IMG/VR virus record: IMGVR_UViG_2519899560_000026
Coordinates: 1-25,967 of that record
Reading direction: 5' to 3' (one strand)
Length of the DNA: 25,967 nt
Origin: a virus
Lineage: Duplodnaviria; Heunggongvirae; Uroviricota; Caudoviricetes
How positions within the stretch are numbered: position 1 is the stretch's first letter; each line of letters opens with the position of its first letter. Below, one piece after another: positions 18,001 to 25,967 of the stretch. Made by a program: the position numbers.

Positions 18001-21000
18001 AACTGCGTGGAGGGCAACACCACGCTTTACGCCCTGCCGAAACCCGAGGTTGTCCTGCGCTGGCGTGAACAGACCACAGATGACTTCCGCTTCTGTTTTA
18101 AGTTTCCGGCGACCATTTCGCATCAGGCAGCATTACGACATTGCGATGATTTAGTGACTGAATTTTTGACCCGCATGTCACCGTTGGCTCCGCGCATTGG
18201 GCAATACTGGCTGCAACTGCCTGCCACATTCGGCCCACGGGAGCTGCCTGCGCTTTGGCATTTTCTCGATTCTCTCCCTGGCGAATTTAATTATGGTGTG
18301 GAAGTCCGCCATCCACAGTTTTTCGCCAAAGGGGAAGAGGAACAAACGCTTAATCGCGGTTTACATCAGCGCGGCGTTAATCGGGTGATTTTTATTAGAC
18401 ACGTTTAAATACACTACCTAAAGCGATACAATCTAGGTATCAGTTTTGAGGTGGTAAAAAATGAAACGTGTCATTTCATACATTCGTTTCTCATCAGAGA
18501 AGCAAGCTAAAGGCGACTCACTCCGCAGACAGTCTAAGATGGTCACTGATTGGCTTAAGGCTCATCCTGAGTACTATCTGGATGAATCCCTTACTTTTCG
18601 TGATTTAGGCGTTAGCGGGTTTACTGGTAAGCACTTGAAAGGTGGCTTAGGTGACTTTCTAACCGCTATCGAGAAAGGGCTTGTTAAAGCTGGTGATACG
18701 CTCTTGATAGAATCTCTTGACCGTTTGTCACGTCAGGCCGTAGACCGAGCAAGTGAGCTACTCAGAAACATTCTTCGCTCTGGTGTAGATGTGGTCACCT
18801 TGTCCGATGGTGAACATTACACACGAGAAAGTTTAAAAGACCCGTTATCCTTGATTAAAAGCATTCTGATAATGCAGCGGGCGCATGAGGAAAGTCTGAG
18901 GAAGTCTGAGCGTATACAGGCAGCATGGGATGCAAAGAAAGAAGCTGCTAAAGCTGGTATCAAGATTTCTAGGCGTTGTCCTGCATGGCTTAAGCTTAAT
19001 GATGACCGTAAAAGCTTCTCTGTGATACCTGAGAAAGTGGAGACTGTGAAGAGGTGCTTTCAGCTACGGTTAGAGGGTAAGTCTATCTGGGAGATTGTCA
19101 GAACTCTTAATGATGAATGTCACCAGTCGATGAACCAGTATAAGCCGGGTAAGTTTGGTCAAACCTCAGTGCAAGACCTTCTGAAGAATCGCTCTGTAAT
19201 TGGTTATTTCACACCTAAAGGCCGTGAGGAGATAGCTGGTTATTTCCCCTCTATCATCCATGAGACTGATTTCTACAAAGTTCAACAACTATCACATTCT
19301 CGTTACGGTCGAAAACCTGTTTCAGCTAAACCATTGAGTGTGAATCTCTTTAAAGGTGTTATCCGTTGTTCTGAATGTGGTCATGCTCTGATTATCACAG
19401 GCTTTAGCGATACAAGAAACGGGATTTATCGTTGTCCTCTTCGTAATGAAAACCGTTGTAGTGCTAAAGGGCTGTCACGTAAGCAAACCGATGGTACATT
19501 GCTTGCCCTGCTATCTCGTCTTGACCGATTTGATAGCGATACGACGAATACCATAGATACGCTGAAGCTACACCGTGAACACATCTCAAGCAATATAGAA
19601 AAGCTGGTACAACTATCACTGGAAATTGAAGACTTGTCCGCTATTACCAGCAAACTAAGACAGTTAAAAGGTGAGCTATCACAGGTTGATGCTGATATCG
19701 AGAAGGAGACACAACGCCTTAAATCTATTGATGTGGGTTGTTTGTCTGATTGTGACTTGACTACAAAGGCGGGAAGGATTGAAGCACAACTGATAATCAA
19801 AAGTGCTGTTAAAGAGGTCGTTTTAAATACTGCTAAACGTCGCTGTAAAGTGACTTTTCACAATGGTAGAGCAATCACCTTACCAATAACAGAAAACCCC
19901 TCAGAGGACGTTACAGAGGCTATACAGTCGCTTTCTGAGGTCACTGAGAGGGGTTTAATAGGTGTTGATGAGGTTATCATATAGTTGAGATTCTATCGTC
20001 AGTATCGCTTGTTAGGATTCACAGAAAACTTCTTCAAAGTACTACCTGTACCAGCATTATTAAGCACCTTTGAAGCTTGCTCATTAGCGGCATCTGAGAA
20101 GGTGCTTTTTCCGTTCTCAACTTTGACACTTTTACCACAATTGATACGGGCTTGAAGTTGCTCATTAGTAAGTTCACTCGTAGAGCGATTATATAGCTCC
20201 TGACACATCAACATACCGTTACCTAAGCTTGTCGTAGTGTTCCCTGTATTCTTTTTACTGGTAGCACCACCATCACTTGTGGTAGAAGTCCTTCCGGTCG
20301 CAGCCGAAATATCAGTTTGCCCTACGATAGCTTTAAAGTTAATTTCCTGAAAAGTTAGCTGGATTCTAAGACCATTGGCAATACCAACATCTTTAGAGGC
20401 TTTAAAACTCGTAATAATGGAATCGTCAATTTTGATACCGTCTCGACAGATGACAGAAATAATTTGTTTCTGGTCACGCCAGCTTTCTAGAGTGTCGATG
20501 AAGTTTTCCACCAGCTTAGTATCTCTTGAGATAAGGATACTACCGGATTCACCAACCACAACGACACCACTAATAGTGATTGTTCTGGGTGCTCTTTGAA
20601 CATTATCTGTGACGGTTTGCCCTGATTGCATATTTTGAGTGGTAACCATCATAGGGCTATCAAATTCCATGTTTTCAGTTGCTGATAGTGACAAGAAATT
20701 ATCTGGTTGGCCTTGTAGATGAAAGTAAACGCCATCTTTGCCAGTGTAACGAAGCTGATTAGTGTAAATCATTAAATTCTCCTTTGATTTCAAAGACTTA
20801 GTATATTTTAATCATTTTTAGCTAAGCCTTTGATATATAAGTATTTTCTCTGTTAAGCGTGAGCTACGTAAAAACTAATTTTTAGTGGGTATATCTGTTC
20901 AGGAGATTTCACGTAGCATTCGGCTATTATTATTCTTCCTCTGGATAGCTTGAACTTAAGAGCATATCCTGCGTGAACTGGTCATTAGCCGATTGATTGA

Positions 21001-24000: not shown

Positions 24001-25967
24001 TTCTTGAGGTTCAGGAGACACAAAGGTAATTTCCTTTGGTGACATCTTTAGCGATTGCTCAAGCTTAATTCTTTCATCGTGTTCTTTGCGCTGAATAGTG
24101 ATAGCTGGATGTTCAGTCTGTGGCGACCAGTCACCGAAGCTATCAACCTTTCTGCCATTAATGTAAATATCGTCTGTCATTATCATTTCCTCTAAGTGTG
24201 TGGTTATTTCTTAATAGAGCACCTTCAACGCCAATATACTTAGAAGATGACTTAACGATTGATTAAAGATGCTCTATTAAGAAAAGCCCTAAACATAGGT
24301 GATTCGGATATTCATGGAATCATCCTCATCTGTGAAGGGCTTTGAAGGTTTGCTTTAACGTTAACGAAGTTTCAGGAAAAACTTTCTTTAAAAGCTCTGT
24401 TTAAAAACTCTTAAAGAAAACGCCCTAATCATGAGTTAGGGCAAAGCTGTAAGGGTTCAATAATGAATGATTAAGCACTTTTTGAGATGACCTCTCAGAC
24501 TAAACTGAAAGGCCATGACGAAAAGCATTGCACCTTTCAGAATGTTCGGTATAGAACATACCTCACCAACTCAGAATATCCATCCATCGGATTATTGAAA
24601 ATATGATTTTAGGAAAAATTGCTCTTCCTATATATACAATTATGTCATGCTTAAGATTATTTGTCAACAGCTTTTTAACAGATTGGTAACATCAATTCTT
24701 ATTTACTGTGTTACCTACCCAGCAACCAACAAATAAACCCAAAGCTGTCCAAGCAATTATTAAGCTCATTAATGCACCACCTTCGAATCCGTAACCAAAA
24801 TATTGTCAGCGTACAGGATTGCTATGGCTGCCTTGAGATATTTTTCAGGGCTAACGCTGTATTTGTTCGTTTGCTCGATAACCAATCTTTTCATGTTGCT
24901 GTCTTTAATTGGTAGCATCATTCGAGGCTCGTTAAACTCCACCGACTGAATAAAGTCAGAGATGTTTTCTGCATTATCAGCCATCAGCTTTAACAGCCTG
25001 TCAAAGTCAATTGATACACCGGAATCACTGAAAGCCTGAATCATCATAGCGGTGTCGTTATCAACGAAAATCTGTAATTCGTAATTGCTCATTTTAAATT
25101 CCTCTAAAACACATCTCAGACCTCTTAAAATAGCCATTCTGAGGCCGGTAACCATGCGGGTTACAGAGGGAGTTGCACTGGCTGGTAAGGTAATTTATCA
25201 AATTAAGGTGCAACTCTGCCTGTAAAGTGCATTCTACCGTTTCTTAGATGGTTATTTTGAATTGTCTTTATTAATCAATGATTTAACGTAGAAATACTGT
25301 CTCCGTGAAATACCATATTTTTCTGTAATGTATCGCTGAGATTGACCAGCATTTATGGCCTGAGTGATATCATCACGGTTATAGCGGTTACCACGGGATT
25401 TATATTTGTCACCATCCACATCTTCTGAGGTATTGAAGTCTTCAATCAGCTTAATTGCATCGTGAAGGTCATCTTCTGAGGCATAATCGAAGGTATGGAT
25501 AATCTCAAAATCACCAGTATCTGCTGGTGCATTCTTCCATCTGGAGAAGCGGGATTTTAATTGCTGGTGTGTGAAGGGTTCAGCATTACGAGTTAAATCT
25601 TTCCATGTTCCGTTATTCTCACGGACAAGGTGGCCTCTATGGCGATAAAACGCATGATAATCAAATGTGCATAGCATTAAACCCCCAGCCTATCCGCTAA
25701 TTGATGGACCTTTGCGCTTAACACCTGAATCATTGAGCAACCTGCTACTGCGGACTGTGCTTTGAGTAGTTCCAGTTGGCCCGTTGTGATTCTGATGGCC
25801 TTAGAACCCTCTGCAACGCCCTTAACGTTATCGAAAGGGCTAAGGTTTACCGACTCTTTTAAAATCTCCCCAACAAGCGCTGTGTGCTTCATATCGGGAT
25901 ATTTGGCTTTGATTGCTGCCAGTCGTTCAAATGCCTCTGGCAAAAGGCGTGTGACGGTGTGAGCCAT

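Follow-up and report, generated by a model that had tools for sequence, protein, structure and literature searches.

The 25,967-nt viral stretch analysed here (IMG/VR record IMGVR_UViG_2519899560_000026, hereafter the window) contains a Stx2a prophage followed by a remnant of yecE and a further phage-like region, and the question is what this last region represents. The preliminary description left the choice between a degraded prophage, a satellite-type element and an integrative island of unusual organisation. We consider it probable that we are dealing with an integrative phage satellite of a so far undescribed family that uses virulent Felix O1-like myophages (Ounavirinae) as helpers and supplies tail-core proteins of its own, i.e. 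among these three options the satellite-type element is favoured. A prior description of such a family was not found in the searchable literature.

A discrete element inserted in yecE

In Escherichia coli O111:H8 99.1145, the host of the element, the insertion interrupts yecE midway. Junction mapping delimits a discrete element of 11,267 bp that starts at window position 18393 and reaches beyond the window end by about 3.7 kb, up to window-equivalent position 29659. In the numbering of L001, which is used below for all features beyond the window, it spans 20094-31360.

17935-18392, plus strand: middle yecE (DUF72) fragment, representing attL (RefSeq pseudo-CDS; alignment with intact K-12 yecE and the right junction)
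18386-18392: att core TGATTTT, closing the middle yecE fragment
18393-25967, no strand: left 7.6 kb of the element (junction mapping, GC 39.3%)
18393-18430, plus strand: left arm of attP, TATTAGACACGTTTAAATACACTA (reconstructed attP)
18461-19984, plus strand: large serine recombinase (integrase), 507 aa (Pfam, PHROG)
L001 30337-30906, beyond the window: small serine recombinase
L001 31354-31360, beyond the window: attR core

Both junctions of the element have the 7-bp core TGATTTT in common, as mapped against intact K-12 yecE, and the C-terminal yecE fragment adjoins the far end. With the downstream end and the att repeats located, the earlier proposal of a second, separate phage-like element behind the yecE remnant, led by a large serine recombinase, is confirmed by att junctions of its own. 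Its start had been placed at 18461, which is not borne out, since the element begins at the att core (18393). In the reconstructed attP perfect 11-bp inverted arms (TAGTGTATTTA...TAAATACACTA) flank the core, the left end being palindromic with the right one, and these arms are kept to 100% in one divergent relative.

Large serine recombinases are proteins of about 450-700 amino acids in which an N-terminal resolvase catalytic domain precedes a recombinase domain and a zinc beta-ribbon. The att sites of serine integrases are short with a small common core, and attP comprises about 50 bp with imperfect dyad symmetry. The 507-aa recombinase, which faces away from the junction as already described, shows both the domains (Resolvase PF00239, E = 7e-21; Recombinase PF07508, E = 6e-13; Zn_ribbon_recom PF13408, E = 4e-7) and the att sites of a phage-type serine integrase and matches phrog_95 (integrase) with E = 6e-77.

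The element can exist in an excised form, as an attP-joined unit. The exact attP junction is present within an 11,473-bp metagenome contig that represents a circular permutation of the whole element devoid of yecE sequence, with contig ends about 7 bp apart and both inside the rep gene. This excised form is documented by one contig from one metagenome and could equally be a spontaneous circle. Mapped att junctions and the attP-joined unit together describe a discrete integrative element able to excise, as is general for satellites.

The GC content, now computed for both elements, is 39.3% in the element and 49.2% in the Stx prophage part, compared with 50.9% in the chromosome. The visible AT-richness to the right of about position 18400 is thus reproduced in numbers, but it is only partly diagnostic of a separate element since the early region of the Stx prophage itself drops to 40-43% GC.

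Two tail-core genes related to Felix O1-like phages

On the opposite strand the integrase gene is followed by two genes for tail proteins, each headed by a copy of the same repeat.

19999-20772, minus strand: tail tube initiator (Dit-like), 257 aa (PDB 9ndy_A, PF21821)
20853-20918, minus strand: 66-nt repeat (copy 1), adjoining the tube initiator gene on its upstream side
20930-23056, minus strand: tape measure protein, 708 aa (PDB 9ndy_F, PF20155, phrog_4036)
23075-23140, minus strand: 66-nt repeat (copy 2), adjoining the tape measure gene on its upstream side
L001 30975-31027, beyond the window: third, diverged copy of the 66-nt repeat

The tape-measure-like gene had been recognised from the beginning. 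Its product matches PDB 9ndy_F (Bas63 gp17) with E = 1.4e-64 and can be aligned with Felix O1 ORF67 (742 aa) over 534 columns at 31% identity (query residues 1-476). Element and phage have the N-terminal motif and the C-terminal sequence LLSSSYPEEE in common, and in Bas63 the C-terminal 25 residues of the tape measure dock on hub and spike (PMC12609058). Tape measures of the elements have a length of 682-722 aa versus 742 aa in the phage and form their own clade with about 30% identity to the phage protein and 47-81% identity among themselves.

The 257-aa protein, formerly counted among the gene products with no recognisable family, turned out to be a Dit-like tube initiator. It matches the “Tube initiator protein (gp018)” of PDB 9ndy_A (Bas63 gp18) with E = 2.7e-115 and shows 74% amino-acid identity to Felix O1 ORF68, with about 85% nucleotide identity across 474 bp; its C-terminal part of about 70 residues is diverged from ORF68. 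As the tube initiators of the elements are 62-96% identical among each other, the phage protein (74%) falls within their spread, which points to repeated exchange.

Both element proteins are thus homologous to the Felixounavirus tail core (Bas63 gp17-gp18, PDB 9ndy_F and 9ndy_A; Felix O1 ORF67-ORF68), and the similarity extends to gene order and to the termini of the tape measure. Felix O1 ORF67 and ORF68 are virion proteins (PMC3185647). Whereas their genes are adjacent in the phage, those of the element lie apart, with the element-specific 66-nt cassette in front of each. This cassette corresponds to the promoter-like repeats of the preliminary description: it is a direct repeat with 95% identity between copies 1 and 2, located 5' of both tail genes and kept there in relatives, and its ends, GCTACGTGAAAT...ATTTACGTAGC, are conserved and constitute an inverted repeat. 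It has no counterpart in the Felix O1 genome and, for this reason, control of the tail genes by the helper is unproven.

Further genes, leader region and replication module

The remaining features of the element are the following.

23144-23171, plus strand: copy of a 28-nt hairpin motif (GGATTCGATAGAA..CTCATA; blastn, 93% of 28 nt)
23181-23216, minus strand: strong terminator-like hairpin with 15-bp stem and T run, between the 67-aa and tape measure genes
23243-23446, minus strand: 67-aa basic protein, position kept in relatives
23470-24180, minus strand: 236-aa family-specific protein
24181-24768, minus strand: 588-bp leader region with promoter, hairpins and small ORF
24692-24769, in the leader region: conserved 25-aa hydrophobic ORF
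24769-25092, minus strand: 107-aa protein, position kept in relatives
25252-25677, minus strand: 141-aa protein, in the variable part of the element
25677-25967, minus strand: 96-aa protein, annotated start at the last base of the window
L001 28278-29255, beyond the window: replication initiator
L001 28821-28908, beyond the window: four 22-bp iterons within the initiator gene
L001 29669-29797, beyond the window: methylase remnant
L001 29951-30153, beyond the window: block related to a phage terminal-repeat boundary
L001 30928-30947, beyond the window: phage-like terminator

All previously listed reading frames (257, 67, 236, 107, 141 and 96 aa) are present. The view that several of them belong to no recognisable family holds for the 67-aa protein (no match in Pfam, PHROG, PADLOC and NCBIfam) and for the 107- and 141-aa proteins (no family match in Pfam, PHROG and PADLOC). 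In its structural model the 236-aa protein forms an extended antiparallel coiled coil tipped by a small alpha/beta part, and it is a possible chaperone or scaffold for tail proteins. Among the ten proteins of the element compared with PADLOC, one coiled-coil match to LmuB (E = 1e-3) was judged spurious.

The leader region, earlier estimated at about 580 bp of non-coding DNA, contains a near-consensus sigma-70 promoter (24667 to 24639; TTGACA-17-CATAAT, 11/12 plus TG) that drives toward the genes of the 236-aa and 67-aa proteins, the tape measure and the tube initiator and is kept in eight relatives, one of them distant. Several terminator-like hairpins lie downstream of it (e.g., 24443-24421 and 24207-24284). 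A divergent promoter pair adjoins the 96-aa gene just past the window end. Felix O1-like phages contain the 28-nt hairpin motif as well, within their terminal non-coding region; with E = 1.4e-4 in a small local search this match is weak if taken alone.

The initiator matches replication-initiation PHROGs (E = 5e-11) and, weakly, DnaD_N, and can be classified as lambda-O/DnaD-like. Together with the iterons it constitutes a predicted replication module of the element's own, as is typical of satellites. Tape measure and tube initiator are the only structural families in the ten element proteins scanned (Pfam, PHROGs), among which no capsid, portal, terminase, sheath, tube or lysis genes were detected; a lack of virion-building genes is equally typical of satellites.

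A sequence shared with the genome ends of Ounavirinae

About 190 bp of the non-coding block at L001 29951-30153 match 253 records, all of them Ounavirinae, with E-values down to 4e-16. The homology is centred on the boundary of a 613-bp direct terminal repeat of phage Ro111lw (a PMC6454946-style prediction, reported in PMC6454146), a boundary based on one PhageTerm prediction and the duplicated record ends of this single phage. Conserved stretches flank the cut position on both sides, and only one of the two terminal-repeat boundaries is mimicked by the element. In the phage the matched sequence lies within a 1.7-kb non-coding segment dense in TTAACA-type repeats, and the element block ends with a promoter-like TTGACT...TATAAA that faces the small recombinase gene. 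Its most striking part, a 30-bp identity, is an indel-polymorphic hairpin missing from Felix O1, Ro111lw and one relative and therefore cannot be essential. By exact-motif search the block was not found in five fetched relatives. Instead of a packaging signal the block could represent a promoter, an operator or an origin sequence. The GC content of Felix O1 is 39.0% (PMC3185647) versus 39.3% in the element. Phage Ro111lw was isolated on STEC O111, which is the serogroup of the host strain of the element.

Distribution and selection

Relatives with the same architecture were detected in 571 of 5426 complete E. coli genomes, i.e. in about one in ten. They occupy three or more att sites (yecE, tonB and msyB-lpxL) and possess different integrases. 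Relatives of the yecE type without IS have a size of 10.6-11.7 kb, though just 56-79% of their sequence can be aligned. The dN/dS ratios of integrase (0.2-0.3), tube initiator and tape measure lie between 0.1 and 0.3, which indicates that integrase and tail genes are under purifying selection; for the 236-aa protein 0.31-0.62 was obtained from two computable pairs. IS insertions and a methylase pseudogene are seen in the element and its relatives. Matches in IMG/VR represent prophage-style calls from isolate genomes and not particles from viromes.

Comparison with known satellites

P4-like elements, PICIs and cfPICIs are marked by a tyrosine integrase, an AlpA-type excisionase or regulator and a primase or pri-rep gene. 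Additional marks are sid, psu and delta in P4, terS, ppi and rpp in PICIs, and genes for capsid, protease, portal and connectors in cfPICIs. None of these marker families was matched by the element in Pfam, PHROGs and NCBIfam and its integrase is a serine recombinase, by which membership in these three groups is ruled out. Like the element, cfPICIs are enterobacterial satellites with one part of the virion module of their own and the remainder taken from the helper. They differ in integrase type and replication genes, and the labour is divided the other way round: cfPICIs produce their heads and take the tails from the helper (such a satellite reportedly “only steals bacteriophage tails”), whereas the element makes two tail-core proteins and would steal everything else. 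Satellite proteins like Ccm of SaPIbov5 and Sid of P4 redirect helper assembly, and Ccm, a homologue of the phi12 capsid protein (PMC8569155), is a precedent for the insertion of a diverged helper structural homologue.

PLE-type genes were not recognised in the element. PLEs are characterised by the core genes Int, RepA, TcaP, NixI and others, by their residence in V. cholerae and by their helper ICP1. In contrast with the hallmark of the element family, the pair of tape measure and tube initiator, we know of no tail genes in PLEs. The likeness to PLE comprises a chromosomal island of 10-20 kb, a large serine recombinase, an own iteron replication initiator and the lack of own virion genes; the partner of PLE, like the probable one of the element, is a virulent myovirus and not a temperate phage (PMC7145576, PMC9638900). 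As host and inferred helper differ, the element is at most an analogue of PLE. Its initiator differs by being lambda-O/DnaD_N-like and, whereas helper dependence was demonstrated for PLE, we infer both helper dependence and packaging of the element from sequence. For induction, packaging and transfer by a specific helper the evidence is indirect and consists of homology to the Ounavirinae terminal-repeat boundary and to two tail genes. PICMIs (phage-inducible chromosomal minimalist islands) of Vibrionaceae are small satellites of virulent phages without capsid-remodelling genes that are packaged as concatemers in full-size helper capsids (PMC10803314), which is the mode proposed here for the element. 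They differ by their smaller size, possess a tyrosine integrase together with AlpA, Fis and primase and are not known to carry structural genes.

Proposed life cycle and alternative explanations

When a Felix O1-like phage infects the cell, the element would excise and replicate from its own origin. The 66-nt repeat before both tail genes may serve as common regulatory cassette that turns on the tail-core operon, and its third copy would face the integrase across attP. The helper terminase would recognise element DNA via the mimicked genome-end sequence and the element would be packaged in helper capsids, most simply as head-to-tail multimers because a gene for capsid size could not be recognised; to be carried in an 86-kb head, a genome of 11 kb has to be packaged as a multimer or must encode a size-redirection function that has escaped recognition. 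The tape measure, with its helper N-terminal motif and hub-docking C-terminus, and the tube initiator would be built into helper-made tails, and such modified tails might be either tailored for satellite transfer or spoiled for the phage. Only tentatively, and with less than even confidence, do we propose the complete scenario: the first satellite family with its own tail length ruler and tube initiator, which would excise upon Felix O1-like infection, be cut and packaged by the helper terminase at the mimicked boundary, with roughly eight copies per multimer (8 x 11.3 kb = 90 kb versus the 86-87-kb phage genome), and re-tool helper tails, with particles that deliver satellite DNA or with crippled helper particles. 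If true, E. coli would possess a widespread equivalent of the PLE-ICP1 system of Vibrio, with about 10% of its genomes, those of STEC among them, as carriers.

Part of these data could also be understood if the element were chiefly an anti-phage defence island, which spreads in ordinary ways without phage packaging and whose tape measure and tube initiator, as decoys or dominant-negative subunits, poison the tail assembly of Felix O1-like phages. Both proteins keep the interfaces to the helper tail while their middles diverge fast (tape measure 47-81%; 30% to phage), a strong sigma-70 promoter heads the tail operon, and interference with tail assembly is an established defence strategy of mobile elements (PMC11364771, PMC10884400). 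We regard this explanation as unlikely, however, because it leaves the genome-end mimic, the dedicated replication origin and the narrow size range unexplained and because none of the ten element proteins has a significant match in PADLOC (2023 library, newer systems such as Tai being outside it). To our knowledge interference and hitch-hiking coexist in all well-studied satellites; therefore, defence is more a component of the satellite explanation than its alternative. Another variant retains the satellite but takes the shared block as a sensor, i.e. a helper-type promoter, operator or origin that reads infection, with packaging accomplished by other means. The 1.7-kb TTAACA-repeat region, where early promoters or an origin would also sit, and the promoter-like end of the block facing the small recombinase gene fit this variant, but we hold it to be rather improbable as the homology is centred on the terminal-repeat boundary with conserved stretches on both sides of the cut position.

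Decay from a temperate Felix O1-related phage, of which integrase, replication gene and two tail genes were left, is very improbable. Tail genes beside an integrase are typical of prophage ends, and the IS insertions and the methylase pseudogene would agree with decay. Yet hundreds of genomes share the compact gene order and the size of 10.6-11.7 kb, with insertions at three att sites. The genes show purifying selection, the att sites on either side are intact, and the element is known in an excised form. Neither head, terminase, sheath or lysis fragments (Pfam, PHROGs) nor the variable size of decaying prophages were found, and the degraded-prophage option is not favoured on account of the conserved architecture of about 11 kb, the purifying selection and the lack of head, terminase and lysis remnants. 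Moreover, the phage records that match the non-coding half all belong to Ounavirinae with genomes of about 85-90 kb, and Ounavirinae are strictly virulent. The chance that the region is the far arm of the Stx2a prophage is practically negligible. Adjacency is what speaks for it, with 458 bp of yecE in between, whereas the Stx prophage is closed at the 5' end of yecE by a tyrosine integrase of its own and separate att sites, those of the element, lie 458 bp farther along. The element occurs in yecE without a Stx prophage (e.g., in EC-TO75), is absent from all Stx phage records and differs in GC content by 10 points. The search yielded no Stx phage in which this gene order is contiguous, and coverage of the region by any one phage record does not exceed 7%. 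An arm of the Stx2a prophage is thereby refuted by the junctions, the Stx-free occurrence and the comparison with phage records.

Biological and practical relevance

Felix O1-like phages are among the phages most used for typing, biocontrol and therapy of Salmonella and E. coli. An element that resides in one of ten E. coli genomes and contains helper-like tail-core genes and a helper-like genome-end sequence is a likely determinant of the success of such phages; it could reduce phage yield and could make lysates vehicles of gene transfer. Known satellites manipulate capsids or packaging, and we know of none that supplies a tape measure and a tube initiator. If the satellite explanation is true, tail assembly and DNA delivery represent a new arena of satellite-helper conflict. 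The system is tractable since it combines E. coli, the BASEL phage Bas63, whose virion structure has been solved, and a simple serine integrase for which the att sites are defined. A correction is warranted for the annotation of such loci, which currently carry the labels “tape measure”, “phage baseplate protein” or “transposase” and are counted as prophage debris.

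Location and boundaries of the element

The AT-rich DNA to the right of the Stx2a prophage is certainly a separate element and not a random prophage remnant, and we consider it moderately probable that it is a phage satellite whose helpers are Felix O1-like virulent myophages. In a sequence match the window was 100% identical to the chromosome of E. coli O111:H8 strain 99.1145 (NZ_CP077481.1), from which a region of 47.7 kb around the window was taken (L001; window coordinate + 1701 = L001 coordinate). The neighbourhood of the element comprises the following features:

window 1 to ~17951: Stx2a prophage, inserted at the 5' end of yecE
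window 1511-1780: stx2B
window 1792-2751: stx2A
window 16665-17951: tyrosine integrase of the Stx prophage
window 17935-18392: middle fragment of yecE (456 bp), between the Stx prophage and the element
L001 31353-31700: remainder of yecE beyond the element

Upstream of its stx genes the prophage carries three tRNA genes, the Q antiterminator, replication genes, xis and the tyrosine integrase. Alignment of both junctions with the intact yecE of K-12 places the element between window position 18393 and the window-equivalent position 29659 (11,267 bp), and comparison of the junctions reveals the core TGATTTT at both ends. Since it extends past the window end, the window contains only its left 7.6 kb. 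Thus, the second element proposed in the preliminary description is confirmed by its own core and junctions, and the other end and att repeats that were expected downstream have been located. Its higher AT content compared with the Stx prophage holds on average (39.3% GC in the element, 49.2% in the prophage part and 50.9% in the chromosome) but not throughout, because the Stx early region with 40-43% GC is close to the element.

When the right end is joined to the left one, the reconstructed attP (junction of GACCTTGATGATTTT with TATTAGACACG) exhibits perfect 11-bp inverted arms, TAGTGTATTTA...TAAATACACTA, flanking the core. Serine integrase sites are expected to look like this. One divergent relative has both arms with 100% identity. 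In strain 99.1145 the yecE gene (819 bp) carries two insertions, with the Stx phage at the 5' end and the element near codon 157, so that two unrelated elements with differing integrase types stand in tandem in a single gene.

Gene content and regulation

From the left end, then along the minus strand in the order of transcription, and finally at the right end, the element comprises:

left end, + strand: large serine recombinase, 507 aa
minus strand: replication initiator, 325 aa, matching replication-initiator PHROGs, with four tandem 22-bp iterons within the gene
minus strand, after the replication initiator: small proteins of 96, 96, 141 and 107 aa without family
minus strand, between the 107-aa and 236-aa genes: leader of 588 bp
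minus strand: 236-aa protein (window 23470-24180), then 67-aa protein, both without family
minus strand, after the 67-aa gene: tape measure, 708 aa
minus strand, last in transcription order: Dit-like protein (tube initiator), 257 aa
right end, + strand: methylase remnant
right end, + strand, L001 30337-30906: small serine recombinase, 189 aa

The large serine recombinase directly after the yecE remnant, the tape-measure-like gene on the opposite strand and some 580 bp of non-coding DNA, here the leader, had all been recognised in the preliminary description. Its group of genes without recognisable family persists for the 236-, 67-, 107-, 141- and 96-aa proteins and has to be given up for the 257-aa protein, a tube initiator. 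Family scans of the element proteins matched no capsid, portal, terminase, sheath, tube, fibre or lysis family, and PADLOC matched no defence model. The 141-aa and 96-aa proteins had no match among PDB sequences, and a scan of the whole element with Rfam (E <= 1) returned two chance matches only. In NCBI the majority of records for homologues of the 236-aa protein carry the name “transposase”, which has no backing from any Pfam, NCBIfam or PHROG model.

The 236-aa, 67-aa, tape measure and tube initiator genes form an operon, faced by a sigma-70 promoter that is close to consensus (window 24667 to 24639; 11 of 12 positions plus TG) and kept in eight relatives. Several terminator-like hairpins follow the promoter, and a strong terminator (window 23216-23181) stands ahead of the tape measure gene. 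The promoter-like repeats that had been noticed earlier correspond to a 66-nt cassette located directly upstream of each tail gene, with conserved ends forming an inverted repeat; these two copies are 95% identical in the element and the position is kept in relatives. At the right end there is a third, diverged copy, oriented across attP to the integrase gene. The cassette would function as a switch of the tail genes. Its interpretation as a late promoter of the helper was rejected, as the core occurs nowhere in the Felix O1 genome even with up to 3 mismatches allowed.

Beyond the window, two overlapping divergent sigma-70-like promoters (L001 27705-27755; each 10/12 plus TG) separate the 96-aa gene from a 61-aa gene on the opposite strand, a layout as in a genetic switch. 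A conserved hydrophobic ORF of 25 aa (MSLIIAWTALGLFVGCWVGNTVNKN; window 24692-24769, - strand), which has no annotation in RefSeq, shares bases with the stop codon of the 107-aa gene and is situated immediately upstream of the strong promoter.

Two tail genes

Both tail proteins have counterparts in the structure of phage Bas63 (PDB 9ndy): the 257-aa protein matches chain A, “Tube initiator protein (gp018)”, with E = 2.7e-115, and the 708-aa protein matches chain F, “Tape measure protein (gp017)”, with E = 1.4e-64. In this structure the tube initiator sits as a hexamer on the hub and starts the tube, and the tape measure is docked on spike and hub through its C-terminal 25 residues (PMC12609058). 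In Felix O1 the homologues come from two neighbouring genes, ORF67 (742 aa) and ORF68 (265 aa), arranged as in the element, and both products were found in virions (PMC3185647).

Between the tube initiator and Felix O1 ORF68 the identity is 74%; when the alignment is read by eye, it is about 85-90% for residues 1-185 and far lower for the last 70. At the DNA level the tube initiator gene reaches ~85% identity with the phage over 474 bp. Tube initiators of relatives are 62-96% identical to that of the element, so the phage protein lies within their spread. The tape measure shows 31% identity to the phage protein (BLASTP, query residues 1-476) and shares with it the N-terminal motif MAQ(F/Y)xVDxF(I/L)(I/V)EL and the exact C-terminal LLSSSYPEEE. 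Tape measures of relatives are 47-81% identical and group apart from the phage (30%).

Pairwise dN/dS values of 0.1-0.3 for integrase, tube initiator and tape measure, and of 0.31 and 0.62 for the two computable pairs of the 236-aa protein, mark all four as working genes. Insertion sequences (IS2, IS100, ISEc12, ISKpn26, IS1203) interrupt the tape measure gene of many relatives, which may stem from the size of the target or from selection against an active copy.

Non-coding DNA shared with Ounavirinae

A sensitive blastn comparison of the right half of the element with 50,697 phage records led to 253 matching records, all of them from Ounavirinae. The matching block comprises 120-190 bp of non-coding DNA (L001 29951-30153; 72-80% identity, E down to 4e-16), and a second patch is a 32-nt terminator (L001 30920-30951; 94%). 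Both fall within the single non-coding region of 1.6-1.7 kb in these phages.

Packaging of Felix O1-like phages involves short direct terminal repeats (PMC11737134, PMC11984208), and for vB_EcoM-Ro111lw a terminal repeat of 613 bp was predicted by PhageTerm (PMC6454146). Direct comparison confirms that this record begins and ends with the same 613 nt. The repeat ends between ...GCTGTTAAGGGCTACC and AAGCAGATATACATC, and the block of the element aligns across exactly that point, which corresponds to about L001 30090. The element thus holds a diverged copy of a site at which a phage genome end is produced. Conserved are AAAATTTTTATAAAAT, AAAAATATCTG and TATxTCTGCT on the unique side of the boundary and GTAxCC, CCCTTTGCAxAA and TTAAAATATC on the repeat side; a motif search detected a repeat-side motif in Felix O1, three further phages and five elements. 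A search of the element for a second terminal-repeat boundary found none.

A “DTR” of phage KMM2 (OP902295; loci L012 and L013), the basis of its CheckV “complete” call, was dismissed as a marker of physical ends, since it amounts to no more than a 65-bp overlap that assembly left at the record ends, within the non-coding region. A hairpin of ~30 bp (AGTTGATTCGGTAGAATCTACCTCATGATG; L001 30047-30075) is identical in some Felixounaviruses (L009 311-331, L010 2590-2610). As a packaging signal the GTTGATTCGGTAGAATCTACC hairpin was discarded: it is indel-polymorphic and missing from Felix O1, Ro111lw and the element of strain 4012, hence not essential. Because it comes and goes in phages and elements, its identity was given no weight. 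In other elements hairpin variants with compensating stem changes adjoin attR, and the hairpin behaves as a small structured insert that is mobile or optional.

The element as a probable phage satellite

Assignment to the satellites is favoured by the presence of own integration, excision and replication functions together with the lack of any means of building a particle. It is further favoured by a maintained pair of tail-core genes, with interaction ends matching those of one phage group, and by DNA-level exchange with the Felix O1-like group, the copy of its genome-end region and the matching base composition. In such a cycle a helper would induce the element and then package it, probably as multimers, and the element would affect tails. 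In lifestyle, PLE with ICP1 comes closest among known systems; PICMI is the analogue for packaging without capsid remodelling and Ccm of SaPIbov5 for copying a structural protein of the helper. The literature searched, with most subscription journals outside it, contained no precedent for a satellite with tape measure and tube initiator.

Family in E. coli and excised form

By megablast, relatives were detected in 571 of 5426 complete E. coli genomes, always in the chromosome and mostly with 80-95% identity over part of the length. Relatives in IMG/VR are prophage-type calls in isolate genomes, and a peptide-word search of genome contigs, which detects only close relatives, pointed to one Escherichia species. 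IS-free elements of the yecE type span 10.6-11.7 kb as calculated from match coordinates, although their sequences align over just 56-79%. The genes keep one order (integrase, tube initiator, tape measure, 67-aa, 236-aa, leader, 107-aa, variable small genes, rep, small recombinase) at yecE, at the tonB start codon with another integrase (36% identical), between msyB and lpxL, and in one context with a 236-aa homologue of only 38% identity. In the msyB-site element the 236-aa homologue is 25%, the tape measure 81% and the tube initiator 93% identical, and modules have been shuffled among the elements. The small serine recombinase occurs in opposite orientations relative to the main operon among relatives (L019 680-1228, L025 4747-5298, L001 30337-30906), which may point to an invertible segment or to replacement of the module.

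An exact search for the 36-nt attP junction gave no match in IMG/VR and one in a JGI/ENA metagenome contig, ERZ1090866 NODE_760 (11,473 bp), with the order small recombinase, attP, integrase. This contig is a circular permutation collinear with the O111 element, in which the right and left ends of the element overlap by exactly the 7-nt core, and contains no yecE sequence. Mapped onto a relative, the two ends of the contig fall ~7 bp from each other within the rep gene, where the iterons lie. The contig represents a unit-length circle or a head-to-tail multimer, so the integrase system is active in nature. One contig end (L020 11431-11473) is an untrimmed Nextera adapter (CTGTCTCTTATACACATCT...) in the public assembly. 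Further contigs of ~11 kb from Logan and ENA, considered as circles, have short chromosomal flanks (the tonB start in one) and are therefore integrated copies at assembly break points.
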